A stretch of 64,000 nucleotides of DNA from contig CAZNOI010000005.1 in the NCBI GenBank assembly GCA_964574685.1, forward strand, positions 69,875 to 133,874, written 5' to 3'. Source of the DNA: an uncultured Dehalococcoidia bacterium. Its GTDB lineage: Bacteria; Chloroflexota; Dehalococcoidia; SZUA-161. The translations under genes and the position numbers were made by a program. Positions 29,826 to 63,878 of the stretch are shown here, piece by piece (the stretch's first letter is position 1; each line of letters begins with the position of its first letter). Under the pieces are notes generated by a model. The model saw only the letters and a program-made list of their open reading frames with translations. It was not told the DNA's origin and searched no databases.

Positions 29826-29842
29826 ATTGAGGAGACTGAAGG

Positions 29843-32475: not shown

Positions 32476-32484
32476 TCGGCTGCC

Positions 32485-35465: not shown

Positions 35466-35499
35466 GCTGGGGAAGCTACTCTCTAGGAGGTCGACGAAA

Positions 35500-35916: not shown

Positions 35917-35959
35917 ACGCCTGCAGGGAGAATCGACTGAATGGAGAGAGGAGTTCATT

Positions 35960-36925
35960 ATGGCTGACAAACCGAAGGTTGCGATTTGCTGGCTCGGGTC
36001 CTGCGGTGGCTGCGATGAAGCAGTGGTCGACATAAACGAAGCGGTCCTCACTGTGGCCGATGCCACGGATATCATTCTGTGGCCGGTGGCGCTGGACTAC
36101 AAGTACCACCACATAGAGGCCATGCAGGACGGTGAGATCACACTGAGTATCATCAATGGTCATATCAGGAACTCGGAGCAGGAAGAGGTGGCTAGGCTGC
36201 TCAGGAAGAAGTCCAAGCTCGTCCTGGCGTTCGGCGCATGTGCCTGCTTCGGAGGCACGCCGGGCATGGCCAACTTCAGAACCAAGGACGACATTTTCAA
36301 CTGGGTGTACCGGGATGCGCCCACGGTGGTCAACCCGAATGACAACAGGCCGCAGCCGAAGTCTACTGTCAACGGCAAGGAGCTAACCCTGCCTGAGTTC
36401 TACGAGCAGGTCTACGCTCTGAACCAGAGCATCGACGTGGACTACTATCTCCCCGGTTGTCCGCCTCCTCCGGACCTGATTGTAAACGCGGTGATGGCGG
36501 TGCTCGAGGGACGCCTCCCCGAAAAGGGCTCGACGCTGGCGCCGGCCCGGGCGCTTTGTGATACCTGCCCGCGCAACAAGACCAAGCCGGACAAGATATC
36601 GGTCAAGGAGTTCAAGCGGATACACGAGGTGGAGGCCGACCCCGATACATGCTTCCTGGCTCAGGGTATCGTGTGCCTGGGACCGGCTATTCGCTCCGGT
36701 TGCGGCGAGGCTTGCATGAATATCAACATCCCGTGCAGAGGCTGCTTCGGCCCTGTCGAGGGAGTGGGCGACGCTGGAGCCAGGCTGCTGTGCTCGCTGG
36801 CGTCGATTGTCGAGGCGGAGAGCGACAGTGAGCTGGAACAGGTGATGAGCACACTGGCCGATCCGGCCGGATACGCATACAGGTTCTCGGCGCCGATCTC
36901 GACACTGGTCAAGAAGCGGGTCTAG
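35960..36925 (+). CDS. mvhG: [NiFe]-hydrogenase small subunit (MvhG-like)
   Basis: Start at the internal ATG 35960. MADKPKVAICWLGSCGGCDEAVVD is the proximal-cluster motif. The C-terminus has additional Cys clusters. Confidence 0.85.
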   Translation: MADKPKVAICWLGSCGGCDEAVVDINEAVLTVADATDIILWPVALDYKYHHIEAMQDGEITLSIINGHIRNSEQEEVARLLRKKSKLVLAFGACACFGGTPGMANFRTKDDIFNWVYRDAPTVVNPNDNRPQPKSTVNGKELTLPEFYEQVYALNQSIDVDYYLPGCPPPPDLIVNAVMAVLEGRLPEKGSTLAPARALCDTCPRNKTKPDKISVKEFKRIHEVEADPDTCFLAQGIVCLGPAIRSGCGEACMNINIPCRGCFGPVEGVGDAGARLLCSLASIVEAESDSELEQVMSTLADPAGYAYRFSAPISTLVKKRV

Positions 36926-36945
36926 GAAGTCAAGGAGGAGCGACA

Positions 36946-48527: not shown

Positions 48528-51242
48528 GTGACAGACGGCAGAGAGTGGTACCAGCTATCGATACACGACGTCTTCGAGACACTGCAGACAGGGGGGGCAG
48601 GTCTCTCAACGGCCCACGCCAAGGCTCGGCTGAGTGATTACGGGTACAACGAACTGGAGGTGCGCAAGCGAGGGCCGATTATCCGCTTCTTGTCGCAGTT
48701 CAACAACGGCCTGCTCTACGTGCTCATGGCTGCCGCTGTTCTTACCGCAGTGTTGGGCCATTTCATCGATATGTACGTGATCATCGGTGTAGTGCTCGCC
48801 ACGGTGATAATAGGCTTCATACAGGAGGGCAAGGCCGAGGCATCGCTGGAAGCGCTCAAGGGGATGCTGGTGCCCGAGTGCATAGCGATGAGGGATGGCG
48901 AAAAGCAGACTGTACCCACACGCGAGTTGGTGCCCGGTGACGTCGTGGTGTTGGAAGCGGGAGACAGGGTCCCAGCAGACCTGCGGTTGTTCTCGATAAG
49001 GCAGCTTTCGATCGACGAGGCGACGCTCACAGGCGAATCCAAACCTGTTGCGAAGGTAACCGAACCCTTGGACAGGCCCAATCTAACGCCCGGAGAGCAG
49101 CGGTGCATGGCATTCAGCGGAACCTTTGTTGCCAGAGGCCGTGCTGAGGGCGTGGTCGTGGAGACAGGGGCTCGGACTGAGATGGGAAGAATCGCGGGGA
49201 TGATGACTGAGACCAGGAGAGTTGTTCCCCCAATTGTCAAGAAGATTAGCCAGTTCACCAAGTTCATCATAATCGCGTGCGTTGGCTTTGGGTTCATAAC
49301 GCTGGGTATCGGCGTGGGCCTCGGCTACGACGTGGGATACATGCTGCTCGCCACGGCGGGAGTGATCGTTGCCCTAATCCCAGAGGGGCTGCCGGCGGCT
49401 ATCATAACCGCATTCGCCGTCGGAAGCATGGCTATGGCGCGCAGGAACGCGCTCATCCGGAGACTCCCTGCGGCGGAGACACTCGGAGCGACAACTGTCA
49501 TATGCTCCGATAAGACCGGCACTCTCACCAGGAACGAGATGACCGTGGTGAAAGTATACGCGGGAGGGCGCCTCTATGGAGTCACCGGGGTCGGCTACGA
49601 GCCGACCGGGGATTTCTTCCATGATGACGAGCTGCATAGTCCTGCGGAAGATGAGACCTTGATGAGGACACTTATGGCGGGTTTCCTGTGCAACAACTCC
49701 GAACTGGTCAAAGGAGAGAAAGGCTATGGTATGAAGGGGGACCCCACTGAGGGTGCGCTGATAGTCTCTGCCGCGAAGGCGGGGATCAAGACCGAGGTGC
49801 CTAGACTGGATGAAATACCCTTCGAATCCGAGAACCAGTACATGGCCACACTCCACAGATGTGAGGACAGGAACATTATCTACGTCAAGGGCTCGCCCGA
49901 GCGCGTGCTGAGCATGTGCTCCACCCAGCTCGGTGGTACGGACCCGATGCCGCTGGACCCTGAAGCCATCATGAACTACGTCCATGCGATGGCCGCCGAC
50001 GCACTTCGTGTCCTGGCGATGGCGTACAAAGACGTGCCCGTCAGTACGGTGTCTCTTGACCCTGCGGACATGGAGGGGCTGACGCTTCTGGGTATACAGG
50101 GCATGATCGACCCGCCAAGACAAGAGTCAATCGATGCAATCAGGAAAGCCAAGAAGGCGGGCATCAGGCCCATCATGATAACCGGTGACCACGCTGCCAC
50201 GGCACGAGCCGTAGCGAGGCAACTCGGTATTGGCGACGGCAGTAATGAGGTCCTTACTGGTGAGCAACTGTCAGCCATGAGCGACGATGGACTATACGAG
50301 GCGTTGGAGCGCGTGTCGGTCTATGCCCGGACAGCCCCGGAGCACAAGTACAGGATCACGCATCAATTACAGCGGCGAGGACACATCGTCGCGATGACCG
50401 GAGACGGCGTCAACGACGCACCTGCTTTGAAGGCGGCGGACATAGGGGTGGCCATGGGCATAACGGGCACTGAGGTGAGCAAGGAAGCGGCGGACATGGT
50501 GCTTACGGACGACAATTTCGCTTCGATCGTGGCGGCCGTCGAGGAGGGGAGACACGTCTTCAATAACATCTGGAAGGTCATTCTGTACCTGCTTCCCACG
50601 AACGGCGGCCAGGGCCTGGTAGTTGTGGCCGCGATTCTACTTTCACCGTTCATACATGTCTTCGCTGAACGGCTACCTATGGAGCCGGTGCAGATTCTCT
50701 GGGTGAATCTCGTAGTCGCCATAGGCTTCGGGATCCCGCTCATATGGGAACCGAAAGAAGAGGGGCTTCTCGATAGGCCGCCGCGCAGTCCCGATGAGAA
50801 GCTGCATAATGCCCTGTTCATCCGCCGAGTGGGCCTCGTCTCCTTAATCTCGGCAGCGGGTGCTGCCGGCATGTTCCTGATCTATGTGGAAAGAATGGGC
50901 GACACCGACCTGCTATTGTCACAGGCACAAACGGTAGCCTTCACTACCCTGATCTTCGTCCAACTCTTCTACCTCTTCACAGCGCGTGCGATCTTCAAGT
51001 CGGCCTTCACGTTTAGCCCGTTCGGGAACAGACTGCTGCTCGTTGGTGCAGGCGCGACGGTGGGCCTGCAGCTTCTGATAGTCTACTCCGAGTCCTTGTT
51101 TGGCGTGAGTCCACTGAGAACCGTGCCCTTCCCTGCTTTCTGGTGGGGCCCGATTGTGGGGGTCAGTTTCCTCGGGTTTCTGGCTGTCGAGCTTGAGAAG
51201 CTCGTAGAGAGGCGCACGGGCAAGGACAAGTTCGGAGAGTAG
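48528..51242 (+). CDS. cation-transporting P-type ATPase (P2-type, Ca2+/Mg2+-like)
   Basis: 904 aa with a GTG start. Motifs DKTGTLT and TGDGVNDAPALK, with 10 TM helices. Confidence 0.9.
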   Translation: MTDGREWYQLSIHDVFETLQTGGAGLSTAHAKARLSDYGYNELEVRKRGPIIRFLSQFNNGLLYVLMAAAVLTAVLGHFIDMYVIIGVVLATVIIGFIQEGKAEASLEALKGMLVPECIAMRDGEKQTVPTRELVPGDVVVLEAGDRVPADLRLFSIRQLSIDEATLTGESKPVAKVTEPLDRPNLTPGEQRCMAFSGTFVARGRAEGVVVETGARTEMGRIAGMMTETRRVVPPIVKKISQFTKFIIIACVGFGFITLGIGVGLGYDVGYMLLATAGVIVALIPEGLPAAIITAFAVGSMAMARRNALIRRLPAAETLGATTVICSDKTGTLTRNEMTVVKVYAGGRLYGVTGVGYEPTGDFFHDDELHSPAEDETLMRTLMAGFLCNNSELVKGEKGYGMKGDPTEGALIVSAAKAGIKTEVPRLDEIPFESENQYMATLHRCEDRNIIYVKGSPERVLSMCSTQLGGTDPMPLDPEAIMNYVHAMAADALRVLAMAYKDVPVSTVSLDPADMEGLTLLGIQGMIDPPRQESIDAIRKAKKAGIRPIMITGDHAATARAVARQLGIGDGSNEVLTGEQLSAMSDDGLYEALERVSVYARTAPEHKYRITHQLQRRGHIVAMTGDGVNDAPALKAADIGVAMGITGTEVSKEAADMVLTDDNFASIVAAVEEGRHVFNNIWKVILYLLPTNGGQGLVVVAAILLSPFIHVFAERLPMEPVQILWVNLVVAIGFGIPLIWEPKEEGLLDRPPRSPDEKLHNALFIRRVGLVSLISAAGAAGMFLIYVERMGDTDLLLSQAQTVAFTTLIFVQLFYLFTARAIFKSAFTFSPFGNRLLLVGAGATVGLQLLIVYSESLFGVSPLRTVPFPAFWWGPIVGVSFLGFLAVELEKLVERRTGKDKFGE

Positions 51243-51801
51243 TCCATCCAGAAAGTGATAGCGGCATCGGACTGCCTTTTTCTCACGTCAGGCGGATCCA
51301 ATCGCACTCATCTTGTGACTGCCAAAGGCTCTCTCATACATGTTCATAGTGTGGTGGCTACCCCCGATCCCCCTGGAAGACTCCGGTAGATATGATATCC
51401 CAGGAATCGGGCAACGGTCTCCTCATCGGCAACACTTCCTATTGGGCGCAACACGTTGCCTATCGCCGGGGCACGCGACTGCACCATGGGCATTGGCTCC
51501 TTTCTGGGTTCTTCGCCTTTCTGAAGGGATCCGAACCCTCTCGCGTATCCCTGACGCTAGTCCGTAGGGTGCATGCAATGAAGGAAATGCACCAGCACCC
51601 AACGCCTGACGGCAGGCAGCCGCGAATGACTGAGGTTCGTATAAGGGACTGTAGGGGTTCATAGCCATGCGCCCTTACTCCCATTGACTACCCCACCGCC
51701 GCTCGCGCCTCCCTCCGAAATGCACCACCAGCGGCTCAGAACGGCTCGGAAGGGGCGCGAAGCGGGTGTGTCGCAGAGCCTGGCGTTCTGGTCGGCTCTG
51801 G

Positions 51802-52977
51802 CTAGTCTCGCGGAAGCCCGAGGCCTCTGGTGGCGATAATGGCCCTCTGGATCTCCGACGTACCTCCGGCGATCTTGTAATGCGGGGACTCCTGGTACAT
51901 GTGCGCGAACCAGCCGTGGACCTTGGCGTACTTCGAGTCGGACTCGAGCTCGCCGTAGGGTCCCAGAACCTGGATGCCTGTGTGGGCCAGGTCGTAGACT
52001 ACCTCGGTGCTGATCAGCTTGCCCATGGCGATCTCCTTGAGGGCGAACATCTTGAGCTCCTGCATCCAGGCAACCCGCCGCGACAGCACGCCCGTCACGG
52101 CGAACCTCATCTCGATCTCGGCCAGCTTTCGTCGCACGCCGGGGTCTTCGGAGAGGGGCTTCCCGCAAAGCTCCGTAGACTTGACGTACTCGATCAGTTC
52201 CTCCAGGGGGCGATGGAAACCGCTGATCGTGAAGGCTCTCTCGAACAGCAGCGCTGCTCCTATAATGTAGAAGCCCTGGTTCAGGTCGCCGACCAGGTTC
52301 TCCTTAGGGACTCTAACGTCGTCATAGAAGACCTCGTTCGAATGGTAGCCCGCCATGTCGCGTATGGGGCGTACGGTAATGCCGGGGGTATTCTTCAGGT
52401 CCACTATGAGCAGCGATATTCCCTTGTGTTTCTTAGGATTATCGGGATCTGTCCTTACCGCCAGCCATCCATAGTCCGCGAAATCGGCCTTGGTACTGAA
52501 CATCTTCTGTCCGTTGACGAGATAGTGGTCGCCCTTGTCCTCCGCCCGCAGGCTGATGGAAGCAAGGTCCGACCCGGCTCCAGGCTCCGTGTAGCCCATG
52601 GAGAACTCGACCTGGCCGCTCGATATCAGAGGCAGATACTTGCGCCTTTGCTCCTCGTTTCCATAAGCCAGTAGCGTGGGCCCGACTACCATGGCCCCGA
52701 TCACCGCGAAGGGGGCTGGTGCGAAGGCGTACGCGAGCTCCTCCTGGATAACGTAGTTGGTCAGGGCTGAGGCCTCCATGCCGCCCCACTCCTCGGGCCA
52801 GGTCGGGCACAGCCAACGCCGCTCGCCTAGCTTGCGCAACAGCCGCCACGTTGCGGCGCTGTACGGCTGGTCGAACATGAAGTCCGTGCGGCACTCTTCG
52901 TCGACTTCTTCACGCAGGAAAGCGCGAATCTCCTGCCGCAGCCGCTCCTGTTCGGGGGTGAAATGGAAATCCAACAT
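51802..52977 (-). CDS. acyl-CoA dehydrogenase (BbsG/CaiA-like position in the cluster)
   Basis: 391 aa. Four-domain ACAD with the C-terminal block IAGGTSEIQRAII. Confidence 0.85.
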   Translation of the reverse strand: MLDFHFTPEQERLRQEIRAFLREEVDEECRTDFMFDQPYSAATWRLLRKLGERRWLCPTWPEEWGGMEASALTNYVIQEELAYAFAPAPFAVIGAMVVGPTLLAYGNEEQRRKYLPLISSGQVEFSMGYTEPGAGSDLASISLRAEDKGDHYLVNGQKMFSTKADFADYGWLAVRTDPDNPKKHKGISLLIVDLKNTPGITVRPIRDMAGYHSNEVFYDDVRVPKENLVGDLNQGFYIIGAALLFERAFTISGFHRPLEELIEYVKSTELCGKPLSEDPGVRRKLAEIEMRFAVTGVLSRRVAWMQELKMFALKEIAMGKLISTEVVYDLAHTGIQVLGPYGELESDSKYAKVHGWFAHMYQESPHYKIAGGTSEIQRAIIATRGLGLPRD

Positions 52978-53029
52978 GCCTCCTTTGGCAGCAGTCTTGT
53001 CTGATTGGGTACGAACCGCGCCTGCCTGG

Positions 53030-54307
53030 CTAGGCCAGCACTCCCTCGCTCTTGAGGCTGTCTATCTGGTCTTGCGGCATGCCCAGCAGCTTGCCGTAGA
53101 CATAGTCGTTGTCCTGGCCGATCCTGGGCATGGGTTCGAAGCGACAGGGGGTCTCCGAGAAATGGATGGGCTCGGTGATACACATCACAGGCTTGCCCTC
53201 GGGCCACTCCGACCCGGACTTGCCGAACTCCGGCACGATGTACCGTGTCTCCTTGTAGTAGCCTCGGCGGTTCAGGTGCTCGCTCTGTGACAGGTCCTGC
53301 CCCTGCGCGACAATGCCGGCTGGTACCCCTACCGCCTGCATCATCTCCATGACTTCGACCGCATCCTGATCAGCAGTCCACTCGGTCACCAGCCGATCGA
53401 GTTCGACTACGTTGTCGAGCCTATCTGCGAGAGTAACGAACCGGGGCTCCGCTGTCCAGGCGGGATTGCCGATGACCTTGCGGAAGGACTGCCACTCCTC
53501 TTCCGTGAACACCGCGATAAGACACCATCTATCGTAGCCTCTGCAGGGGTACGCGCCATGAGGCGCGGCATAAGGGTCCCTGTTCTCCATTCGGGCGGGC
53601 AGGACGCCGTTGGCCTGGTAGTCAAGCAGTGCGGGGCCCGCTGTGACCACGCCGGTGTCGTTCAGTGAGCACTCGATGAGCGTGCCCTTGCCGGTTCTGC
53701 GGCGCCTGTCGAGGGCGGCAACGACGCTCAACGCGCTGAACATGGCCGCGTGGAGGTCGGAGTAGGGCGGATCGGTGGAAGCCGGCGCCTCCGTCGAACC
53801 CGTCATCAGCGAAACGCCGGAGCTGTACTGCGTGAGCATACCGTAGGCCTTGTATGAGCTGTACGGCCCGCTCGCCCCAAAAGCGTTCTGCCAGAGCATA
53901 ATGATGTTGTCTTTCACCTCACGAAGACGATCGTAGCCGAGGCCCCAGCGCTCAAGGGTCGGCATGGTGAAGTTGGTGGCGAAGATGTCGCTGATACCGA
54001 TCAACTCTCTCATGATCTCCTGAGCTTTGGGCTCGCGCACATTCAAACTCGCGCTCCGCTTGTTCACCAGGCGGTTGCGTATGATCAGGCCCGAGCCCCA
54101 CGGGGGAGGAAGCCAACCCTCGTCGATCGCGGTATCGCTCTGCACAGTGATGACTTCTGCGCCGAGCGAGGCAAGCACCCTGGTGGTGGTCGGGACGGCT
54201 GCATAGAAGGCGAGTTCGATGACCCGCAGCCCCTCGAATATGCTCCCTTTGCCTCCCGCCTGCGTAGTATCTCCAACGATACTCATGTGTCCCTCGCTAC
54301 ACAACAC
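53030..54307 (-). CDS. family III CoA-transferase (CaiB/BaiF/BbsE-F family), subunit 2
   Basis: 425 aa. N-terminus LRVIELAFYAAVPTTTRVLASLGAEVITVQ. Confidence 0.8.
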   Translation of the reverse strand: MLCSEGHMSIVGDTTQAGGKGSIFEGLRVIELAFYAAVPTTTRVLASLGAEVITVQSDTAIDEGWLPPPWGSGLIIRNRLVNKRSASLNVREPKAQEIMRELIGISDIFATNFTMPTLERWGLGYDRLREVKDNIIMLWQNAFGASGPYSSYKAYGMLTQYSSGVSLMTGSTEAPASTDPPYSDLHAAMFSALSVVAALDRRRRTGKGTLIECSLNDTGVVTAGPALLDYQANGVLPARMENRDPYAAPHGAYPCRGYDRWCLIAVFTEEEWQSFRKVIGNPAWTAEPRFVTLADRLDNVVELDRLVTEWTADQDAVEVMEMMQAVGVPAGIVAQGQDLSQSEHLNRRGYYKETRYIVPEFGKSGSEWPEGKPVMCITEPIHFSETPCRFEPMPRIGQDNDYVYGKLLGMPQDQIDSLKSEGVLA

Positions 54308-55532
54308 CAGCGGCTTTCAACGCTATCAGTTGGTTCGTGGCGTAGCCCAACTCGCCGCAGTATACCCGCTCATTGTCCTGGCCCAGGAGGGGTGCGGCCT
54401 TGCGCGGCGGTGGGATGTCGTCGCAGTAAACTCCGTCTCGCGGATACTTCATCGGACCCACCACCGGATGATCGAGCTCCACCCAGAAGCCACGGCTGGC
54501 CAGTTGCTTGTCGTCTATGAGGTCGGCTACGCTGTTCACCGGCAGCACGGGAATCCCGCGTCTCTGGCCCTCCAGGAAGATCTCCTGGGCAGTGAAGTTG
54601 CCGGTGAAGTCCAGAAACCTCGCCTCCAGCTCGTCCATGTAGTCGTAACGCGCCAGAACGCCTCCCTTGTACTTGTCATCGAGGATCTCCTCGTCTCCTG
54701 TCACCTCATACATCCATTGGGCCAGCGCATCCCATTCCTTGGCTCGTACGACGTACATGCCGATCCAGCCGTCCTTGCATGAGTAGAGACCGCCTGGGAA
54801 GTTATACCTGCTCGTCGGCCCCTGCCTGATGATGTTCTCGCCGATCATGGCCCAGCCGGCCTCCTGCGTCGCCTCAGAGCAGTAGACGTTGAGGGTCTCC
54901 TGCATGGACACATCGATGTACTGGCCGCGTCCGGTCACAGCGTCGCGATAATACAGTGCCGCCACGGTCGCCACCGCTGCGTACTGTGATGGGGCGAAGT
55001 GCGACTGCTCGTCCCCAAACCGCAAGGGCAGGCCGTAGGGATCTCCCGTCACCTGCATGAAACCGCTCATCCCCATGACTATGAGGTCGGAGGACTTGTA
55101 GTCTCTTAGAGGGCCCGTCTGCCCGAACGGCGTGATGGAGGTCATTACGAGCTTGGGGTTAAGTTCTCTCAGCGCGGGGTAGTCAAGCCCGATGGCGGAG
55201 AGATGACGGACCGGGAAGGTCTCGATCACTGCGTCGGCTGTAGACGCCAGTCTCTTGAAGATGGCCCGGCCGTCGGGGTGTTCCAGGTCGAGCGTAACGG
55301 AGCCCTTGCTCGTGTTGTAGTAGAGGAAGTACAGGCTCTTCTCGGGGTGGGCGTCGTTCTGGAAGAACGGTGGACGAGACCTCGACTTGTCTCCACCAGG
55401 GGGTTCGACCTTGAGGACGTCCGCGCCGAGGTCGGCGAGCAGCTTGCCGCAGTAGACGCCCTTCTCGTCGGCCAGGTCCAGAACCCTGTAAGGTGGCAGG
55501 AACCCAGCCTCGCCATGTGGTGCCTTCGGCAT
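54297..55532 (-). CDS. family III CoA-transferase, subunit 1
   Basis: 411 aa. YRVLDLADEKGVYCGKLLADLGADVLKVEPPGG. It overlaps the next transferase by 11 nt. Confidence 0.85.
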   Translation of the reverse strand: MPKAPHGEAGFLPPYRVLDLADEKGVYCGKLLADLGADVLKVEPPGGDKSRSRPPFFQNDAHPEKSLYFLYYNTSKGSVTLDLEHPDGRAIFKRLASTADAVIETFPVRHLSAIGLDYPALRELNPKLVMTSITPFGQTGPLRDYKSSDLIVMGMSGFMQVTGDPYGLPLRFGDEQSHFAPSQYAAVATVAALYYRDAVTGRGQYIDVSMQETLNVYCSEATQEAGWAMIGENIIRQGPTSRYNFPGGLYSCKDGWIGMYVVRAKEWDALAQWMYEVTGDEEILDDKYKGGVLARYDYMDELEARFLDFTGNFTAQEIFLEGQRRGIPVLPVNSVADLIDDKQLASRGFWVELDHPVVGPMKYPRDGVYCDDIPPPRKAAPLLGQDNERVYCGELGYATNQLIALKAAGVV

Positions 55533-55562
55533 CCTGTGTGTACCTGTATCCCGACCCCTGGG

Positions 55563-58019
55563 CTATCGCTTCGAGAGCTTGTGTCTTGTCCTGGATATGA
55601 TCTGGTTCTGGACTTCCTCGTGCATATCGACGAAATAGGCGCTGAAGCCTGCAACTCTCACTATCAGGTCCTGATGATGAGCCGGGCGCTTCTGCGCGTC
55701 CCTCAGAACCTCATTGTCTATCACGTTGAACTGGATGTGGTGTATGCCAAGATCGACGAACGTCCTGAGATAGGCAACGAAGCGTGACCGGTTGTCTCCC
55801 TCCAGGAACTCAGGTGCAATCCTCTGATTGAACAGGTGGTTGAATGTGAGCATGGGGTCTATCTTGGCCACGGACCTCAGGACTGCGGTCGGCCCGTTCT
55901 TGTCGGTGCCGATCTCCGGCGATACGGTGCCGTCGTTGAACGTCTCGCGGTCCTTCCTGCCGTCAGGTGTGGCCCCTGTGAGGCCGGCGAAGTGGAAGTA
56001 GCTGGCCGATCCGCTGCCATCGCAGGTGACGTTATGGCCGTATATGGTCTTGAAATCCTGCATTGTCTGAGCGGTCCTGATGTGGACATCACGTGCGAAC
56101 AGATCAACGTCGTCATCGTCATTGCCGAACCTTGGTGCATCGAGGAACATCTGACGTAGCTGCTCGTGACCCTCCCAGTTGTCCTTCAGGGCCCGGAGGA
56201 GCTCGTCCATGGTCACGGTCTTTTCGTCGAATATGAGCTTCTTCATCGCAAAGAGGGCGTTGACCACCGTCGTGTGACCGACGGGCTGGATGTTGGTCTT
56301 GTGCCAGTAGTGGAGGTCTCTGACGTCGGCCGCGTGCTCGATGCACCCGTCGAGGAGGGCGGAGTTGAATGGTTGGGGCAACCACTGCTCCTCAATAGCA
56401 TCCGTCAGGTTCGCAAAGATGACAATCTTCTCAGTGAAGAACCTGAGTTGCTCCAGGTATGCCTGGATAACATCCTCAATCGATGTGAACGCAAGCGGGT
56501 CCGGGGTCCTGACGCCGGTCTGTTTGCCACTGAAGAACTTGTCATCAACTCCCCGGGTAAGCGCCAGCTCCAGGCATTTCAGCACCACAAACCCTATTCC
56601 GGCGATGGCACGGTGTCCCATAGGTTTGCCCACCACCGTATGCCTCATGCAGTCCTCGACGGCCCAATTCCTCGCGTCCTCAACCGAGAAACCCTTGCTC
56701 ATGAGGTACGGGACCATGAACTCGTCGTTGAAGATGCCGTAGTGCCCTGCGTCCTCCCTCAGGATGTCCGTAAGGCGATAGAGAAACTCGTCCGGGGTGT
56801 TGCGATGCAGTCTGACCACCATCATGGGCTCAACCAGCTTGAGCGACTTGACGCTCTCCATGATGATGGAAGACAATTCGTTGCTCGCGTCCCGCCCCAG
56901 GCTGTCCTGGCCTCCGATCGTCACGTAGCGCGGTGTGGTGTGGCCGCCGCTCGCCATGATGGGGGCGTTGAAGTCAGTAAGCTCGGTGATCTTGAGCCAG
57001 ATGTGCTCGATCAGGTCCTGCGCTTCCTCAGGTGTGATCCGACCCTCTTCCTTGTCCTTCCTGTAGGCGGGGTACCAGATGTAGTCGACCCTGTCGCCGA
57101 TGCCAACGGTTTGTATGTCAATGACCCGCACCAGGAGCATCACGAGGAACCAGGCCTGCAGCGTTTCGCGGAATGTCCGAGGCGGATTCGCTGGCGCCCA
57201 GTCGCAGGCTTGGGCAATCTCCTCCAGGTCGGCTCGTCTCTTGGGGTCACTCTCGTCGGCAGCCATGGCCCTGGCCAGTGCGGCGTACCTTCTCGCCCAC
57301 CTGATGACCGCTTCTACACTGATGATAGCGGCCTCCAGGAATGCCTTCTTCTTCAAGAACTCGGTCGGGTTGTCGCGGATGTATTCCCTGTCGGAAGTGA
57401 TCTCGCGCAGCTTCGCGCGAGTCTCATCAAGTATGCCGTTCAACCCCACCTTGAACATCTTCTCGTAGTTCGGCATCTGCCCGGAGTGGGCCCCGTGTAC
57501 CCATACGAAGACCCCGTGATTCATGAAGGACCAGTACGGTTTGTCCTCCTCGGCGAGGTGGAAACGCTCTGCGCCGTGTATGGACTTGTTCATCCAGTAC
57601 CGGTTGATCTCGTGCATCTCCTCCCGCTCTTCGTCGCTCAGCATATTCTTGTACCCCGCCTCGATGGCCTTGTCCACCCAGCGGCAGTAGAGCTCGGGGT
57701 AGCTGATCGTGTGATCGGGAGTCCTTGCCGTGTTGCCCACAAATCGGTCGTGCTCGGTGATGTAGATCGTCATGTTGTCTAGGTAGTTGGCCATAGCCCT
57801 GGCCCTCTTGATAACCATCGGCTCGCCGTCGTTCTCTATGTAGGCCTGGGTCACGTAGCGGGCTCGCTCGATGTCCAGCTTCAACGTATGTCGAATATGG
57901 CTCTTCTTGCCGAGCTTCTCCTCTTCGTCAACCCGGTAGTCACGCTGGCCCATCATCGTCCTGTATCGGAACTCGTCCGCCAGCATCTGTGTTCTCGTCT
58001 TCCTCGCTTCGACTACCAT
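55563..58019 (-). CDS. glycyl radical enzyme (PFL2/glycerol-dehydratase-like class) with a non-canonical Cys loop
   Basis: 818 aa. Gly-radical motif RVAGFSAYFVDMHEEVQNQIISRT (Gly at about 788). GRE N-terminal helices. The central Cys is at about 457 in NWAVEDCMRH. There is no Glu at C+2 and no CC. Confidence 0.9.
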   Translation of the reverse strand: MVVEARKTRTQMLADEFRYRTMMGQRDYRVDEEEKLGKKSHIRHTLKLDIERARYVTQAYIENDGEPMVIKRARAMANYLDNMTIYITEHDRFVGNTARTPDHTISYPELYCRWVDKAIEAGYKNMLSDEEREEMHEINRYWMNKSIHGAERFHLAEEDKPYWSFMNHGVFVWVHGAHSGQMPNYEKMFKVGLNGILDETRAKLREITSDREYIRDNPTEFLKKKAFLEAAIISVEAVIRWARRYAALARAMAADESDPKRRADLEEIAQACDWAPANPPRTFRETLQAWFLVMLLVRVIDIQTVGIGDRVDYIWYPAYRKDKEEGRITPEEAQDLIEHIWLKITELTDFNAPIMASGGHTTPRYVTIGGQDSLGRDASNELSSIIMESVKSLKLVEPMMVVRLHRNTPDEFLYRLTDILREDAGHYGIFNDEFMVPYLMSKGFSVEDARNWAVEDCMRHTVVGKPMGHRAIAGIGFVVLKCLELALTRGVDDKFFSGKQTGVRTPDPLAFTSIEDVIQAYLEQLRFFTEKIVIFANLTDAIEEQWLPQPFNSALLDGCIEHAADVRDLHYWHKTNIQPVGHTTVVNALFAMKKLIFDEKTVTMDELLRALKDNWEGHEQLRQMFLDAPRFGNDDDDVDLFARDVHIRTAQTMQDFKTIYGHNVTCDGSGSASYFHFAGLTGATPDGRKDRETFNDGTVSPEIGTDKNGPTAVLRSVAKIDPMLTFNHLFNQRIAPEFLEGDNRSRFVAYLRTFVDLGIHHIQFNVIDNEVLRDAQKRPAHHQDLIVRVAGFSAYFVDMHEEVQNQIISRTRHKLSKR

Positions 58020-58345
58020 CTTTCTACCTCCCGCGATGCCTGGAAAACATCAAGCCTTCGATTCTTCGCTTGCTTTCTCTTCTCCAGGATGAGACGAGGC
58101 ATTCGCTCATACCCAAGGCCACCAACTGACACCATTCTAGTGTTCAATTCCGCATGGGGCAAATGTCTGCGGCAATGCCTGATTGGGAGTGGAAACAAGC
58201 TGCGACCTGGGTGTGTACTCACATTTGGCCATGATTCCAAAGTCGCCAGAACCCTACGCGTTCCTGTGGCCGGTCTACTTGGCCAGGCCCCGGGTGGACG
58301 CGGCACGGGCCGGTCAATATGGTAGTCGCTCACCGGTAGTTGGAA

Positions 58346-58990
58346 CTAGACTGGTGCAACGGGCTCCGGGGGCTGGATGGCCTCAGGAGTGCTCGTATTC
58401 TCCCGGTGATGATCATAGCTCGGAACAGACAGGGAAGTGTCGTGCGCCGGGATTGGAAGCAGCCTCCGAAGCAGTCGGCCGACCCTCCGGAAAGCCGAGC
58501 GCAGGGCGCTGCGGGGACTCCAACTGCCGTCCACCCAGCCTCTCTTCAGCGTGTTGGACGCAGCCATAGCGGCGAAGTTGATGGCCTTCTGAGGCCCGAA
58601 CCAGCTCGCCAGGTTGATGGCCAGTAGAGGCTCCATTCCCGCCGGGCCGATGAGGGCACCCTGGGTCAGTGCGAGCGCTGCAACCGTACCGACGTTTGGA
58701 AGCTGCTCGACCAGTTGCAGTCTCATCACGTCCAGGGACATGTGGCGGCCCGACCTCCGATAGTCTTTCCTGAAGACAAACCAGTAGCCGGCCACCCACA
58801 GCGAGACATAGCCGACGAAGCTCCCTGCCATGCTCGCGGGGACGATAACGGTAGCTCCCATGTCATCGGTTGCGTAGGCTATTAGAGACCGACCCGCGAA
58901 CGCGCCGAATCCGGCGACGATCTGGACAATTGCCAGCCTGCCGCTGAAGTACTGTCTGACCCTGGCCTTCAACCGCGATATTACCTTCAT
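58346..58990 (-). CDS. hypothetical membrane protein
   Basis: 214 aa with several hydrophobic helices. It lies between the Cys-motif paralogs and the GRE on the same strand. Confidence 0.4.
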   Translation of the reverse strand: MKVISRLKARVRQYFSGRLAIVQIVAGFGAFAGRSLIAYATDDMGATVIVPASMAGSFVGYVSLWVAGYWFVFRKDYRRSGRHMSLDVMRLQLVEQLPNVGTVAALALTQGALIGPAGMEPLLAINLASWFGPQKAINFAAMAASNTLKRGWVDGSWSPRSALRSAFRRVGRLLRRLLPIPAHDTSLSVPSYDHHRENTSTPEAIQPPEPVAPV

Positions 58991-59096: not shown

Positions 59097-59597
59097 TCAG
59101 GTTGTTATGGCGGGGGGCCTGAGGTGGACCAGCCTGCGACAGGTCTTCGAGCCGGTCGTCAGGGGGCTGTCAAGCAGCTCTATCTGGACCGGGTGCTTGA
59201 CCACTGCCTCGAACATCACCTTGTTGAAGTAGTTGCCGCAGATGCACCAGTCCGGGTTCGGCTCGAGGTGGTTGAGGGCAATCATTGGACACATGCACTC
59301 GCCCTCCACTTCTGGGAAGAAGTCGTAGTGAATGACGTCGCCCTTGCGCTCCAGCTTCCTGGCGCCGGGAAAGGCGTTCATGAGGTCTGTCATGAAGGTG
59401 TCCAGGTCCACGTCGGTGTTCAGGTTCCCGTAGGGCAGGAACAGCGAGTTGCACATCCTGCCTGTGCACTCGACGCACAGCTCCCTCATCGCAGGGTCGA
59501 AGTCCTCCTGGAATACCCGTTTGAGCACCTCGCTCTTCAGCAACCCGACGAAGAACTCCCGCTGCGCGATTTCCTCCTCGGTCAGCTCTTGCGGCAT
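59097..59597 (-). CDS. Cys-motif protein, paralog 1 (uncharacterised family)
   Basis: 166 aa. Motifs shared with the next two genes are GD.(I/V)H, C.CP.I, C.C..N and (C)CR..VHL. Confidence 0.55.
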   Translation of the reverse strand: MPQELTEEEIAQREFFVGLLKSEVLKRVFQEDFDPAMRELCVECTGRMCNSLFLPYGNLNTDVDLDTFMTDLMNAFPGARKLERKGDVIHYDFFPEVEGECMCPMIALNHLEPNPDWCICGNYFNKVMFEAVVKHPVQIELLDSPLTTGSKTCRRLVHLRPPAITT

Positions 59598-59679
59598 TGT
59601 GACCTCCCGTTGCGACCGCAGGCGCTTCTCGTCACCCGCGGTCTTGTCAGGACCTGCCTATTCCTCAGATGGCTGGTCC

Positions 59680-60210
59680 TTACTTCTTGTCCTGCGGCGT
59701 GATGAACTCCGCGTCCTTGAGGTACATGACGTAGCGGCAACAGGGAGCACCCGTTGTCAGCGCGCTGTCTGTGAGCTCGGTCTTGGCAACCGGCATGCCA
59801 ATCGTCTCCAGGTACTGCGCGGCCATGTTCGCTCCGCAGGAGCACAGCTCGGGAAAGGGTTCCATTATGCCCATCTTGATGACTGGGCACTCGCATATGG
59901 GATTACCCTCCTCGTCTGTACTGCAGTGGTACCAGCTGTGCACGACGTCGCCCACCCTCTGTATGGTCCTGGGCCCCAGCGGGGGTTCGAGTTCACTAAG
60001 GTGCTTCACCAGCTCGTCGTACGTCATCTCGGGCCGTATCCCGAGCGCCCATACTGCAAGCGGTGCGCAGGCCTTGGCCATACGCATCATGACGAAGTCC
60101 CTGTGCTCGGGTGGCAGCTCTCTGGCGGCTTGAAGAACGGCGGCCAGCATGCGGGGTACCCAGGTAGTGTAAATCAGTCCCTTGATCTCCTCCGACCACT
60201 CGTGTGGCAT
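59680..60210 (-). CDS. Cys-motif protein, paralog 2
   Basis: 176 aa. PICECPVIKMG...CSCGANMAAQYLE...CCRYVMYLK. Confidence 0.55.
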   Translation of the reverse strand: MPHEWSEEIKGLIYTTWVPRMLAAVLQAARELPPEHRDFVMMRMAKACAPLAVWALGIRPEMTYDELVKHLSELEPPLGPRTIQRVGDVVHSWYHCSTDEEGNPICECPVIKMGIMEPFPELCSCGANMAAQYLETIGMPVAKTELTDSALTTGAPCCRYVMYLKDAEFITPQDKK

Positions 60211-60240
60211 GGCTTGTCCCTCCTTAGTCGGGCTGCTGTC

Positions 60241-60816
60241 CTATCTCTCGTGCTTGACAGAGGTGAACGGGGACGGCTTGAGGTGCACCAGGAACCGGCA
60301 TTTCTCCTCGCCGTTCACCATGGGGCTGCCCAGCGTCTCGACGGTCTCCACTTCCCTGCCCGTGTATTCCTCGATGTAGCTGGCCACGCTGTTGGCCGAA
60401 CAGGCGCAGACCTCGCCTCTGGGCTCAATCCACCCGAACATGATGAGCGGGCACTGGCATATGGGCCGGCCCTTCTCGTCCTTCGGGGGAACGTATGTCC
60501 AGTGAACGATGTCGCCTATCTGGGTAACCTCCCTGGGCCCGAACGGAGGCGCCAGCTCCGCCATATGCTTCTTGTAGGCCTCCCACTCCATGCCCGGCTC
60601 ACAGCCCAGCACGAGCTTGGCCTGGTCACTGCAGGCCTTCGACATCATCATCAGGATGCGGTCCCGGTGCTGGGGCGGCAGTTCGCTTATCCCCTGGTAG
60701 GCTGCATCCATGATCTTGTAGAGCCAGCCATGGAGCAGGTCCTTGATATCGGGGCTATGCTCAAGGTATGCGGTGTCGATAGAGTCCTTCACTTCCGCTG
60801 GTAGTTCGTCCGGCAT
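60241..60816 (-). CDS. Cys-motif protein, paralog 3
   Basis: 191 aa. PICQCPLIMFG...CACSANSVASYIE...CRFLVHLK. Confidence 0.55.
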   Translation of the reverse strand: MPDELPAEVKDSIDTAYLEHSPDIKDLLHGWLYKIMDAAYQGISELPPQHRDRILMMMSKACSDQAKLVLGCEPGMEWEAYKKHMAELAPPFGPREVTQIGDIVHWTYVPPKDEKGRPICQCPLIMFGWIEPRGEVCACSANSVASYIEEYTGREVETVETLGSPMVNGEEKCRFLVHLKPSPFTSVKHER

Positions 60817-60858: not shown

Positions 60859-61602
60859 CTATTCCTTGCCCCACTCCACTTCGGGCATGGCCACGGTCCT
60901 GACCTCCTCGGTCTTCGACTCCTCCAGGAACAGGGTCCGGAGCGGAGAGTAGGGGACCAGCCCGTAGAGGAACCTGTAGATGACCTTTGGACGCCACTTC
61001 GCTGCCTCGATCTCCCAGCTCTTGTAGTCGGGGTCTTTCAGCGCGTTCTCGCGTATGGTCACCCAGTCACTGTGGATGTTGCCCGCTGTCCAGATGTTTA
61101 TCACTTCGCCACTGCCTGCGAGGCCGGCCACGGACTTGTAGCAGCCCACGAGCTTCATTCCCCAGTTCCCGGCCATCGGCGCCAGCTTGCTGCCCACGGC
61201 GTGTATGTACTCGTCCTCCTTGCCGGGGGGCGTCTTCGCCAGGGTGTGCAGGTAGATGGTGGCCCTGTATGAGCTGTCGCTCTTGATGTCCGCCAGAGCG
61301 GGCGAGAAGGGGGCCGGCTCCAGCACCTTGCCCGTCCAGTCGCTCACGTAGTCCGGAGCCTCGCGCGACCACACTCTGGCAAGATGGTGGTTGTCCCAGT
61401 AGTCCTGGACCCGGTCGAATGTAGACCAGTCGTCGGTCTCCCACAGGGCCAGGTTCTCGTTGTAGTGTATGCCCACCATGAACATGCCGGTGAGCCTCAG
61501 GCTGTGCTCCTCAGCCTCGGGCAGGTAGTCGGTCTGGAGCACCTTCCAGTATTCCTCCTGGAAACGGGAGACTATCGTTATGCTCTCGTACAGATACAGC
61601 AT
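60859..61602 (-). CDS. NIPSNAP-family protein (two dimeric alpha/beta-barrel halves), paralog 1
   Basis: Start at the internal Met (MLYLYESITIVSRFQEEY). The second half carries KLVGCYKSVAGLAGSGEVINIW. Confidence 0.6.
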   Translation of the reverse strand: MLYLYESITIVSRFQEEYWKVLQTDYLPEAEEHSLRLTGMFMVGIHYNENLALWETDDWSTFDRVQDYWDNHHLARVWSREAPDYVSDWTGKVLEPAPFSPALADIKSDSSYRATIYLHTLAKTPPGKEDEYIHAVGSKLAPMAGNWGMKLVGCYKSVAGLAGSGEVINIWTAGNIHSDWVTIRENALKDPDYKSWEIEAAKWRPKVIYRFLYGLVPYSPLRTLFLEESKTEEVRTVAMPEVEWGKE

Positions 61603-61633: not shown

Positions 61634-62308
61634 CTAGTGGAGTACCGAGTAGGGGGCCGGCAGCAGGAACTTGTAGTTCCACTCGCTGCACAGGCCGGCA
61701 AGTCCCTGAACGGTTGATCTCAGCTTCGAGTCCTTCTTCTGCTCCTCCCGGACCCGGCCGAAGTGCGTCCAGTCCTTCAGCGACCAGATGCTGATGATCT
61801 CGCCAGACTCACCGCACGCGCCGAACCAGCGGTAGCAGCCCGCCAGCTTTGAGCCCGTCTGGTCCATGGCAGGCATGAGGCCGTTCTCCATGAGGGCCAG
61901 GAACTCGTCCGTCTTGCCGGGATGGACGCTGAAGGCCCAGCGGCAGTAAAGGCTGTTGCCGGTGAAGTCGCCCTTGTCCTTGCGGGCCTTTATGTCGGCG
62001 GCGGTCGGCGCGAACGGCAGCCCTTCGATCAGGCTGTCGAACCACTCGTCACGGTACCGGAATGCGACGCGGTGCCAGGACAGTCCGTCGCGCTCGTGGA
62101 TGACGTAGTTGGAGAGGCCTTCGAGCGAAGCGACACCTTCCGGCAACTCGGAAAGGAAGAAGGTCTCTCGGTGCCTGAAGGCGACCCGGAAGACGCCGAG
62201 GACGGTCATGTGCCTGTTCAATCCGGGGATAAGGTCGGTCTCCATAACCCTGACGTATTCGTCAATCACGCCGGTGAAGGGATAGGTTGTCTCGTGCAGG
62301 TAGAGCAT
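61634..62308 (-). CDS. NIPSNAP-family protein, paralog 2
   Basis: 224 aa. MLYLHETTYPFTGVIDEY...KLAGCYRWFGACGESGEIISIW. Confidence 0.6.
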   Translation of the reverse strand: MLYLHETTYPFTGVIDEYVRVMETDLIPGLNRHMTVLGVFRVAFRHRETFFLSELPEGVASLEGLSNYVIHERDGLSWHRVAFRYRDEWFDSLIEGLPFAPTAADIKARKDKGDFTGNSLYCRWAFSVHPGKTDEFLALMENGLMPAMDQTGSKLAGCYRWFGACGESGEIISIWSLKDWTHFGRVREEQKKDSKLRSTVQGLAGLCSEWNYKFLLPAPYSVLH

Positions 62309-62636
62309 GGAGGATGTCTCCTTTCTGGAGTCTCGCCCTTCAATGTGGATAGCAGGTCAGGGAACCAAAGGGTGAGCAGGGTCGGTCTCTTGAGGGGCGG
62401 CTTCTGTTCGATCCGGGCGGTCACAGCCTGCCGCACACACCTCACCCTCCGCACGGGCAGAGTCTGGAGGAAATCGGTGCGTCGTCTCGTCGCTGTTGGG
62501 TGAGGAAGATTGTGGATGAATGATTTCGGTTTGTCAAGCCCGCGTTCGCAGTTCGTCCAAGGGTTGCCATTGGGCGTTGGGTGGTACCGCGGGCGGACAG
62601 GCGGGTAGCCTGGGAGCGCTGCAGAGTAGAAAAGGT

Positions 62637-63878
62637 CTACCGCGCTAAGAACGCGTTTTCGGGCCGGAATCCATCAAACAGGTCAGCCAGCAGTCCTCGG
62701 TAAGCCGTCCTGTAGCATGACCACAAGTCCTCGAAAGGGTTCACAACAACCGCAATGACATTCGCGTAATGCGGGGTGTTCATTCGGCTCTCGATAGCTT
62801 CGGTGGCTGTATGCAGCTTGGCCCTGTTGAGCAGTAGAATACCCGGGCACGCGTCGGGCAGTTGGCGTCTTGCCTCTCTTAGGCTCTTTGCGAGAGTTGA
62901 CCTCTGTCGCCTTGACAAGTCTGCTGAACTGACGACTATCTCACCACCGAACGCACCGCTTTCAGGATCAAACAGCCCGCGTGCCCTGGTGCCGACGGTC
63001 ATGCGTCCGACCTTGGTCGACTTCATGGGGAAGTAGTCTGGCTTGTTCTGAGGGACGATGACGTACTCAATGTTGTTGCCTACTTGTTGGACAGGAGTTT
63101 CGCGGATGCCTTCAGCTTCGTCACTAAGCTTGCTCACAAGTGTCGCGAGGTGATCCAAGTCTGATTGAGACGGAACTGTCTTGAAGTTGATCTCCAAGCG
63201 AAGGCCTGCGCTATGCAAGAGTTCCAGAAGGTCATCAGGGAGTTTGGATTGCACATCCTTGACCTGCTCCGAGAAGTGGAGTGAACCTCTGTCTTGGCCG
63301 GTTCTTGACTGTTTGCATTCGCAAAAGAGTTCGATATCATCTTTCATAAGCCGAAAGTCCGGGTTCTTCACTCCTGTTCGCGCGTCAACCTCGGGCTCGT
63401 ACTCGAATGAGAACCCGTTTTCGGAGAAGCGCGACAAGCACTCAAGTTCGAAGAGCGTATCATGGAACTGCCTCATATTGGTCAGCTTGGTTTCCACTTT
63501 CTTCATGAATGCCTGATTGTGACTGTGGTTACGCAGGAACCTCATCGCAGGCAGTATCTGGTCAAGGAAGTTGTAGTGTTGGGCGTGCTTGGGGTGCAAG
63601 TACATGAGCGTTGAGCCCCATTGGATAGTGAAGGCTGAGTCGGGGAAGAACCTCCTGCTGAACGCAATCAGCTCGCTTAGGTCATCCTGATCTGCGAAGG
63701 GCAGAAACCGACCCGATCCCTCCAATTCCTGCACGAATGTTGCTGCGTCGCTCCGAAGGAGAAGATTAAGGTTACGCGAAAAGGCGAACATGAGCTTGAT
63801 GCTGCTATTGTAGGCATTGTTGGGGACACTCGCAATCTTCTGCAATCTGACTTGGAGTAGCGGTAGTACGGCGGCCAA
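62637..63878 (-). CDS. hypothetical protein with a PD-(D/E)xK-like motif, in a lower-GC segment
   Basis: 413 aa. NPDFRLMKDDIELFCECK fits the PD-x13-ExK nuclease core. The local GC is visibly lower than the rest of the window. Confidence 0.45.
   Translation of the reverse strand: MAAVLPLLQVRLQKIASVPNNAYNSSIKLMFAFSRNLNLLLRSDAATFVQELEGSGRFLPFADQDDLSELIAFSRRFFPDSAFTIQWGSTLMYLHPKHAQHYNFLDQILPAMRFLRNHSHNQAFMKKVETKLTNMRQFHDTLFELECLSRFSENGFSFEYEPEVDARTGVKNPDFRLMKDDIELFCECKQSRTGQDRGSLHFSEQVKDVQSKLPDDLLELLHSAGLRLEINFKTVPSQSDLDHLATLVSKLSDEAEGIRETPVQQVGNNIEYVIVPQNKPDYFPMKSTKVGRMTVGTRARGLFDPESGAFGGEIVVSSADLSRRQRSTLAKSLREARRQLPDACPGILLLNRAKLHTATEAIESRMNTPHYANVIAVVVNPFEDLWSCYRTAYRGLLADLFDGFRPENAFLAR

Follow-up and report, generated by a model that had tools for sequence, protein, structure and literature searches.

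Three adjacent minus-strand genes, referred to here as p1, p2, and p3, were analyzed in a stretch of DNA from an uncultured Dehalococcoidia bacterium (GTDB lineage SZUA-161; assembly GCA_964574685.1, contig CAZNOI010000005.1, positions 69,875 to 133,874 of the forward strand). The whole 64,000-nucleotide stretch is called the window below. The three genes encode small proteins with six invariant cysteines that very probably belong to the DUF6144 branch of the V4R/TRAPPC3(Bet3)/H-NOX fold. Together with two NIPSNAP-type genes, and here a gene for a membrane protein, they make up what comparison of related loci identifies as a conserved Dehalococcoidia operon (NIP1, NIP2, p3, p2, p1), and we are similarly confident that this cassette is autonomous from the glycyl radical enzyme (GRE) encoded next to it. 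In several other lineages, a ThiS-type sulfur carrier is either fused to p1 or encoded after it. The function that we tentatively favor, as something close to an even call, is that of a metal-cysteine, ligand-binding hetero-oligomer taking part in thiocarboxylate-linked sulfur chemistry. The novelty lies in the setting of a known fold: a conserved operon not described before, with a sulfur-carrier fusion that was not expected. The genes and the reading frame that overlaps them on the opposite strand are as follows:

59097..59597, minus strand: p1, 166 aa, six-cysteine protein of the DUF6144-proper subfamily, ThiS-fused or ThiS-trailed in other lineages
59680..60210, minus strand: p2, 176-aa six-cysteine paralog, not in every cassette
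60241..60816, minus strand: p3, 191-aa six-cysteine paralog, the only one found in every cassette
59449..60804, plus strand: antisense shadow open reading frame (ORF) of 451 aa, not a gene

A preliminary description of the region, made from the nucleotide sequence alone, had reported three minus-strand ORFs of 166, 176, and 191 aa, and the ORF listing confirmed them at these coordinates. It had also regarded them as real genes of an uncharacterized Cys-motif family and the 451-aa plus-strand ORF as junk, and both calls were borne out. In comparisons with the orthologs of a related locus (L001), the ratio of nonsynonymous to synonymous substitution rates (dN/dS) was 0.060 for p1, 0.083 for p2, and 0.053 for p3. 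These values, which lie below those of the two NIPSNAP-type genes (0.123 and 0.164), show that p1, p2, and p3 are under strong purifying selection. The GC content at third codon positions (GC3) was 0.78 to 0.87 in the minus-strand frames. In the plus-strand frame, dN/dS was 1.8 to 3.2 and the GC3 pattern was unlike that of a coding frame. The minus-strand genes are thus real and the plus-strand ORF is their shadow.

The three proteins could be aligned end to end, with ~39 to 40% identity between p2 and p3 and 24 to 30% between p1 and either of the others. A database search with the three-paralog alignment returned 106 proteins, all of them unnamed or from metagenome-assembled genomes of Dehalococcoidia. 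Public records hold no name for p1, p2, or p3, and cluster members are at most called "hypothetical protein"; the p2 of the window is identical to database protein P0001. The homologs sorted into three orthologous groups with few intermediates, and identity to the window copy was ~70 to 91% for p3-like, 66 to 88% for p2-like, and 58 to 91% for p1-like proteins. The N-terminal helices showed ~70% identity inside each group and 12 to 38% across groups, so the divergent N-termini noticed at the outset are a property of the paralogs and not of the orthologous groups. This clean split indicates that the triplication is old and that every copy has been retained, and by these alignments p1, p2, and p3 are ancient, specialized paralogs. 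An initial suggestion that the family has simply expanded does not fit three separate old orthologous groups, each 60 to 90% conserved across lineages.

All three paralogs carry the same six cysteines. These are C49, C101, C103, C118, C120, and C153 in p1 and the equivalent C48, C106, C108, C123, C125, and C158 in p2. In p2, C48 lies in an "ACA" segment of helix 2, C106 and C108 form a CxCP motif, C123 and C125 form a CxC motif, and C158 is part of a "CR" pair. The core motif quoted in the preliminary description is therefore shared as stated, with its count of four to five invariant cysteines corrected to six. Among 132 distant relatives (~20% identity), the only columns conserved at 90% or more were the six cysteines and one glycine (G154 in p2 numbering), and the conservation of the cysteines is far beyond chance. 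Inside the cassette family, arginine, glutamate, and serine residues are also conserved.

Sequence searches placed the proteins next to Pfam DUF6144 (PF19641). p1 matched this model at 26.2 bits (E 8.8e-6), slightly under its gathering threshold of 28.8 bits, and many p1 orthologs have a precomputed PF19641 annotation. For p2 and p3 there was no match to DUF6144 at E ≤ 1, and an NCBIfam scan of all three proteins gave no match. An exhaustive HMMER search of 1.84 billion representatives with the family profile recovered 555 representative clusters at E ≤ 1e-3 and just 15 at E ≤ 1e-30. A broad profile returned mainly PF19641 proteins (E 1e-30 to 1e-42), and the cassette-family profile found canonical DUF6144 proteins at E 1e-10 to 1e-40. 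A Pfam census of the 132 distant relatives counted 83 with DUF6144, 17 with MetOD1, eight with V4R, two with Cellsynth_D, and none with ATC_hydrolase; some relatives carry the JGI name "predicted hydrocarbon binding protein." On these profile matches, p1, p2, and p3 are DUF6144 homologs, p1 as a borderline case and p2 and p3 as sister subfamilies outside any Pfam model. The same matches do not establish them as members of ATC_hydrolase, V4R, or MetOD1. The initial, tentative link to an ATC-hydrolase-like family pointed to the right superfamily (PMC5847659), but direct membership of PF14196 was not supported: no match was found in 65 cassette-family members (E ≤ 1) or in the 132 distant relatives (E ≤ 0.01).

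Two further candidates were rejected. DUF6125 as a concealed fourth paralog received an hhalign probability of 0.6%. An apparent fusion to an HTH_3 domain in P0105 diverged abruptly past about residue 98 and was taken as a probable chimera. A search of the available literature library retrieved no paper mentioning DUF6144, this cassette, or NIPSNAP together with Dehalococcoidia.

The AlphaFold2 models of p1 and p2 have predicted local distance difference test scores of 90.1 and 92.3, respectively, and share one topology, with secondary-structure elements in the order H-H-H-E-E-(h)-H-E-E. A long N-terminal helix pair and a short helix are followed by a beta hairpin, the CxCP loop, helix D opening with CxC, and two strands. 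In these models the loop that joins strand 2 to helix D carries CxCP, helix D has CxC at its N-terminal end, and C158 is placed where strand 4 begins. The top Foldseek match of p1 in the PDB was Thorarchaeota TRAPPC3 (7yh3; probability 1.0, E 4.9e-4, template modeling [TM] score 0.51 to 0.57), and further matches were eukaryotic Bet3-family TRAPP subunits, BcsD/CesD, MopR/PoxR, YslB, and H-NOX. p2 likewise matched Bet3-family TRAPP subunits, BcsD, PoxR/MopR, and H-NOX, and the fold class as a whole was returned at probability 1.0. The profile census of relatives (V4R, MetOD1, and CesD) agrees independently with this fold call, and MetOD1, V4R, HNOB, and ATC hydrolase have been described as related families with a common Cys cluster (PMC5847659).

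A metal-cysteine site in p1, p2, and p3 is, by analogy with these structures, reasonably likely. In Thor-TRAPPC3, Zn is bound by four cysteines "similarly to PoxR," ties the sheet to helix D, and forms a ligand cavity, and the dimer interface consists of two N-terminal helices (PMC10933270). By topology, CxCP and CxC fall in the fold region that holds this Zn site. The suggestion in the preliminary description of a metal or Fe-S site is thus plausible as regards a metal, because the closest folds, Thor-TRAPPC3 and PoxR/MopR, carry Zn-Cys sites in the same region.

The context of the genes was examined in 32 loci (L001 to L032), which were assembled from homologs on long contigs and a scan of GTDB species genomes with the p3 subfamily, with a gene census by tblastn. 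They represent ~17 distinct Dehalococcoidia/Chloroflexota lineages. Gene order in nearly all of them was NIPSNAP (224 aa), NIPSNAP-like (~247 aa), p3, p2, p1. The remaining features of the cassette in the window and at its borders are as follows:

60859..61602, minus strand: NIP2, NIPSNAP-like, ~247 aa, with the MLYLYE methionine as probable start
61634..62308, minus strand: NIP1, NIPSNAP-domain protein, 224 aa, first gene of the cassette (Pfam NIPSNAP [PF07978], 31.1 bits; cutoff 22.3 bits)
58346..58990, minus strand: hydrophobic membrane-like protein, 214 aa, after p1, its membrane nature judged from sequence only
62509..62537, minus strand: sigma-70-like match TTGACA-17-CACAAT, 10/12 consensus, ~200 bp upstream of NIP1, a candidate cassette promoter
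58134..58162, minus strand: sigma-70-like match, 9/12 consensus, within the 326 bp that separate the 214-aa gene from the GRE, marking a boundary and lying outside the cassette

NIP1 was always the first gene and always 224 aa in related loci, with a dN/dS of 0.164. The listed NIP2 ORF, of 280 aa, starts at an upstream TTG, reaches 61701, and overlaps NIP1, and orthologs of NIP2 are 247 to 248 aa (dN/dS 0.123). NIP2 scored 18.7 bits against Pfam NIPSNAP, which is subthreshold, and is a paralog of NIP1 (29% identity, E 1e-26). Many loci have, ahead of the cassette, a third NIPSNAP-like paralog of 242 aa that matched no Pfam model and resembles NIP1 and NIP2 weakly by BLAST, and an SRPBCC gene is often found upstream. 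The 214-aa protein had no match in Pfam or NCBIfam. Its counterpart of 217 aa (72% conserved, dN/dS 0.109) follows p1 in L001 to L004 and L016 only.

Some cassettes are reduced or rearranged. p2 is missing in L022 to L025 and L027, and a second p1-like gene takes the p2 position in L010. Only p3 of the three six-cysteine genes is found in L012 and L013, and L022 retains p3 and p1 with no NIPSNAP genes. Elsewhere, a second NIP1'-NIP2' pair (46 to 51% identity) adjoins a CoA-transferase with no six-cysteine genes (L030, 970-2360; L031, 968-2358), and additional NIPSNAP paralogs were found at L010 5412-6140 and L026 7767-8495.

The flanks of the cassette vary by lineage. A thiamine pyrophosphate (TPP) enzyme and a zinc-dependent alcohol dehydrogenase (Zn-ADH) flank it in ~5 lineages, a ThiS-type carrier in ~6, and a DmsA-like Mo enzyme set in ~4; the rest have unrelated genes. 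NCBIfam models gave generic acetolactate-synthase-like and MDR matches for the neighboring TPP enzyme and Zn-ADH, all below cutoffs. Flanks of the Mo type contain a DmsA-like Mo enzyme, Fer4, an aldehyde ferredoxin oxidoreductase (AFOR), and two CoA-transferases. A DUF6125 gene (L001 6836-7396, minus strand) adjoins the cassette, together with AFOR, in L001 to L003 and L016. Upstream of the cassette in the window is a 413-aa ORF (62637-63878, minus strand) with no family match, in a region of lower GC content (0.52 to 0.54 versus ~0.60); this ORF was not beside the cassette in any related locus.

The carrier-flanked lineages hold the strongest functional lead. Fusions of p1 to ThiS were found in database clusters P0062, P0073, and P0089 and in GTDB genomes L023, L030, and L031. 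In these proteins a p1-like domain is followed by a linker of ~25 residues and a ThiS-family beta-grasp domain with a free C-terminal Gly-Gly, and for the L031 fusion Pfam verified both DUF6144 and ThiS. p1 is the only paralog ever fused to ThiS. A separate ThiS gene directly follows p1 in L009, L015, L022, and L032, and ThiF and Aminotran_5 genes are present in L009, L015, L022, and L031. Downstream in L031 and L022 are a ThiF-family E1 (241 bits) and a cysteine-desulfurase-type class-V aminotransferase (325 bits). In L009 and L015, Rrf2, a sulfite-reductase-like gene, PALP, and DUF2061 stand ahead of ThiF and the desulfurase. Identity of these genes between loci is 68 to 72%. The most compact arrangement, in L022 (316-6154), consists of Thi4, DUF6775, ThiS, p3, p1, ThiS, ThiF, and a NifS-like gene; the DUF6775 protein is a probable metallopeptidase. 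A thiamin or thiazole reading, drawn from this Thi4 gene and the TPP-enzyme neighbors, was rejected. Neither a TPP nor any other riboswitch was found in the 57- to 64-kb part of the window or in nine loci, and Thi4 and DUF6775 occur in L022 only.

These observations can be combined into the following scheme. A metal, most likely Zn if the homologous structures are a guide, would be bound by the CxCP loop together with the CxC that opens helix D, and possibly by the strand-4 cysteine as well. By analogy with Thor-TRAPPC3, the metal would link the sheet to helix D and shape an internal cavity, and the helix-2 cysteine and the conserved Arg, Glu, and Ser residues would face the ligand site. The N-terminal helices may bring the paralogs together in a defined hetero-oligomer like that of TRAPPC3/C6, and the NIPSNAP pair would join this assembly as a partner. 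We propose this because the N-terminal helices are specific to each group yet conserved, and consider such a hetero-oligomer plausible, though short of probable. p1, for which fusion and adjacency are observed, may dock a ThiS-type Gly-Gly thiocarboxylate carrier that a ThiF-like E1 and a NifS-like cysteine desulfurase would charge. The module would then act on a small metabolite in the cavity, carrying out or assisting either sulfur transfer to it or C-S chemistry. The formal analogy is to MoaD-MoaE or ThiS-ThiG, and the scheme would agree with the C-S-cleaving ATC hydrolase branch. Sulfur-transfer chemistry as such we hold to be possible and rather unlikely. More speculative still is the idea that DUF6144-type six-cysteine proteins form a new class of ThiS-carrier partners or acceptors, acting with NIPSNAPs as a sulfur-insertion or relay machine in anaerobic Chloroflexota.

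Several observations weigh against this scheme. ThiS, ThiF, and NifS are all missing from the window, and the ThiS link was seen in only ~6 of ~17 distinct cassette lineages; in others the cassette is flanked by the TPP enzyme and Zn-ADH, by DmsA-like and AFOR genes, or by unrelated genes. The ThiS gene of L009 and L015 could belong to a thiocarboxylate-type Cys/Met pathway formed by the downstream Rrf2, sulfite reductase, PALP, ThiF, and NifS genes. Canonical DUF6144 genes stand alone in uninformative neighborhoods, and no characterized DUF6144 member was found in the literature. The structural similarity is moderate (TM 0.45 to 0.57, that is ~0.5; E 5e-4 to 3e-3), and three family profiles and an Asgard relative gave no meaningful sequence-level match to any solved chain. 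The metal is probably Zn by analogy, and might instead be Fe-S.

The strongest competing explanation, which we consider to have a modest chance of being correct, is that p1, p2, and p3 bind, carry, or sense hydrophobic or aromatic substrates without catalysis, and that their metal is purely structural. They would sequester a poorly soluble substrate or pass it to nearby catabolic enzymes, assisted by the NIPSNAP and SRPBCC small-ligand folds. Relatives of the fold bind phenols (PoxR/MopR), palmitate (TRAPPC3), and heme (H-NOX) (PMC10933270), and the frequent SRPBCC gene directly upstream, the presence of up to three NIPSNAP paralogs with the cassette, and the hydrocarbon-binding label given by JGI point the same way. 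The flanks, too, are rich in catabolic functions (CoA-transferases, acyl-CoA dehydrogenases, enoyl-CoA hydratases, thiolase/DUF35, AFOR, and Mo enzymes), but they are too diverse for one common substrate. Six conserved cysteines exceed what a structural Zn needs, and the conserved Arg, Glu, and Ser residues point to catalysis or a polar ligand more than to a purely hydrophobic cargo. A carrier role also leaves the recurrent p1-ThiS(GG) fusions and the ThiF-NifS genes unexplained.

The same carrier genes could instead serve molybdenum or tungsten enzymes. p1, p2, and p3 would then be chaperones for the sulfuration or insertion of a Mo/W-pterin cofactor into AFOR and DmsA-like enzymes, comparable to FdhD and XdhC: the Cys-rich proteins would bind the pterin cofactor and, together with MoaD-like ThiS, MoeB-like ThiF, and NifS, supply these enzymes with sulfur or cofactor. 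ThiS, ThiF, and NifS double in the roles of MoaD, MoeB, and IscS. The cassette has AFOR as its immediate neighbor in L001 to L003 and L016, and in L010/L011, L026, and L031 it is directly followed by a DmsA-like Mo enzyme, Fer4, and AFOR. In L010 and L031, additional p1-like genes in tandem come just before the Mo enzyme. In L031 (14482-15528) this is a DUF6144-type pair upstream of the DmsA-like molybdopterin oxidoreductase, Fer4, AFOR, and two CoA-transferases; in L010 (9474-10513) one member of the pair before the same Mo enzyme occupies the p2 position of the cassette. Against this, neither the window nor the loci of the TPP/ADH or ThiS/sulfite-reductase type contain an AFOR or Mo enzyme, no MoaE or other molybdenum cofactor genes were seen, and the fold is unrelated to FdhD, XdhC, and TorD. 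We therefore judge this explanation improbable.

A role as Fe-S or thiol redox proteins, either electron carriers or redox sensors for neighboring oxidoreductases, also seems quite improbable to us. The hosts are strict anaerobes, six cysteines are invariant, oxidoreductases are common neighbors, and V4R cysteines tune redox-sensitive DNA binding in MsvR (PMC3729527). However, the CxC...CxC spacing is atypical of ferredoxin-type clusters, solved relatives hold Zn and not Fe-S (PMC10933270), and no DNA-binding or signaling domain is attached. Three non-redundant paralogs with NIPSNAPs would be unexpected for a simple electron carrier.

The remaining explanation concerns the neighboring GRE. The preliminary description placed the three genes immediately upstream of it. 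They are co-directional with it at a distance of ~1.1 kb, but the 214-aa membrane-protein gene and a 326-bp intergenic region intervene, and the promoter-like site in this gap suggests that the GRE block is a separate transcription unit. Adjacency to a GRE was seen in this window only, with none beside the cassette in ~30 other loci. Reciprocally, ~30 metagenomic loci with orthologs of the window GRE (68 to 85% identity), ten of them with the full 10 kb upstream, were searched for cassette genes, and none had any. The closest of these (L037 to L040) keep a unit of GRE, two consecutive CoA-transferases, and acyl-CoA dehydrogenase. L001 is syntenic with the window on both sides, with the cassette and the 217-aa membrane protein on one and DnaJ, HSP20, Cpn60, and a histidine kinase on the other; between them, Zn-ADH and the TPP enzyme stand in place of the window GRE, two CoA-transferases, acyl-CoA dehydrogenase, and P-type ATPase. 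The neighborhood tests in both directions leave the earlier proposal of accessory or carrier proteins for the GRE unsupported, and by locus comparison the adjacency is a lineage-specific juxtaposition. Some GREs, such as 4-hydroxyphenylacetate decarboxylase and benzylsuccinate synthase, have small Cys-rich Fe-S subunits. Even with that precedent, a role for p1, p2, and p3 as accessory proteins, small subunits of the HpdC or BssB/BssC type, or substrate carriers of the GRE is very improbable. Their fold is also unlike that of known GRE small subunits.

The GRE itself (51802-58019, minus strand; 818 aa) is of the PFL2/glycerol-dehydratase type. Its best NCBIfam match was to an HpsG-like sulfopropanediol dehydratase at 525 bits, far under the 1000-bit cutoff. 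Its unit includes two family-III CoA-transferases and an acyl-CoA dehydrogenase, in a layout like that of bbs-type CoA activation and beta-oxidation, and a scan of window ORFs turned up no radical-SAM activase. The block from GRE to P-type ATPase (window 48528-58019; L001 11864-14822) is a variable metabolic island between the cassette and DnaJ/Cpn60. A 58%-identical copy of DUF6125 lies directly upstream of the GRE ortholog in L053 (9251-9808).

Elsewhere in the window, a methyltransferase system (20196-27211, minus strand) comprises two MttB-family proteins, a B12-binding corrinoid protein, a pterin-binding methyltransferase, DUF1638, and a RACo-type reductive activator. Genes for hydrogenase maturation (HypF, HypD, HypE, and HycI) and NiFe-hydrogenase subunits occupy 27489-38409. 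A 1718-aa protein consisting almost wholly of tetratricopeptide repeats (8318-13474, plus strand) is flanked by subtilases at 5657-7906 and 15668-17515.

No function is known for DUF6144 or for bacterial NIPSNAP proteins, and here they occur in an operon under tight conservation and strong constraint, found widely among uncultured Dehalococcoidia of sediments. With p1-ThiS fusions recurring and ThiF and NifS nearby, the function can be tested directly. Should the link be biochemical, thiocarboxylate sulfur transfer would gain a new acceptor fold, and the V4R/TRAPPC3/H-NOX superfamily would reach beyond ligand sensing into sulfur chemistry. If p1 and its relatives are indeed ThiS partners, this would be the first biochemical function for DUF6144, and a fold ancestral to eukaryotic TRAPP subunits would be capable of sulfur chemistry. 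The analysis also sets right a tempting guilt-by-association assignment of these proteins as GRE accessories.

Among known systems, Thor-TRAPPC3 (7yh3/7yh2) and TRAPPC3/Bet3 resemble p1, p2, and p3 in the N-terminal helix pair, the four-stranded antiparallel sheet, and helix D. Features of Thor-TRAPPC3 are a Zn bound by cysteines, a ligand cavity, and dimerization through the N-terminal helices, and its eukaryotic paralogs form defined heterodimers (PMC10933270). Compared with Thor-TRAPPC3, there is no detectable sequence similarity and TM is only ~0.5, and the proteins have six cysteines (CxCP...CxC...C plus helix 2) rather than four. They are also bacterial, are encoded in an operon with NIPSNAP and ThiS genes, and lack the longin, roadblock, or GTPase context of TRAPPC3.

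The V4R domains of PoxR/MopR (5frw, 5kbh) and Pfam V4R/MetOD1 belong to the same fold class, and distant relatives of p1, p2, and p3 match the V4R and MetOD1 hidden Markov models; in a Pfam scan, the three proteins themselves fell below both models. Unlike PoxR/MopR, they stand alone, with no sigma-54 activator or receiver domain. The Zn motif of MopR is presumably Cys/Glu/Cys/Cys, and the cysteine spacing in p1, p2, and p3 differs from it. In PoxR/MopR and V4R/MetOD1, a pocket for small ligands occurs together with a Zn site built on cysteines (PMC5847659, PMC10933270).

DUF6144 is the nearest sequence family and has the same six cysteines. Its canonical genes differ from those of the cassette in being solitary, ~193 aa in length, and often archaeal, with no NIPSNAP or ThiS partners and uninformative neighbors. 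ATC hydrolase (PF14196) has been placed in the same superfamily, with a Cys cluster in common (PMC5847659). It acts on a C-S heterocycle, which would fit sulfur chemistry, and its tie to p1, p2, and p3 is indirect, through the literature only.

The last comparison is with MoaD-MoaE, ThiS-ThiG, TtuB-TtuA, and CysO-CysM. No homology of p1, p2, or p3 to MoaE, ThiG, TtuA, or CysM was found by Pfam or NCBIfam, and Foldseek matched the V4R/TRAPPC3 class only. The V4R/TRAPPC3-like fold of p1 is unrelated to those partner proteins, and its carrier link is present in a minority of lineages and not in the window. In these systems, as with p1, a Gly-Gly carrier is fused or adjacent to its presumed partner and is accompanied by an E1 and a desulfurase.

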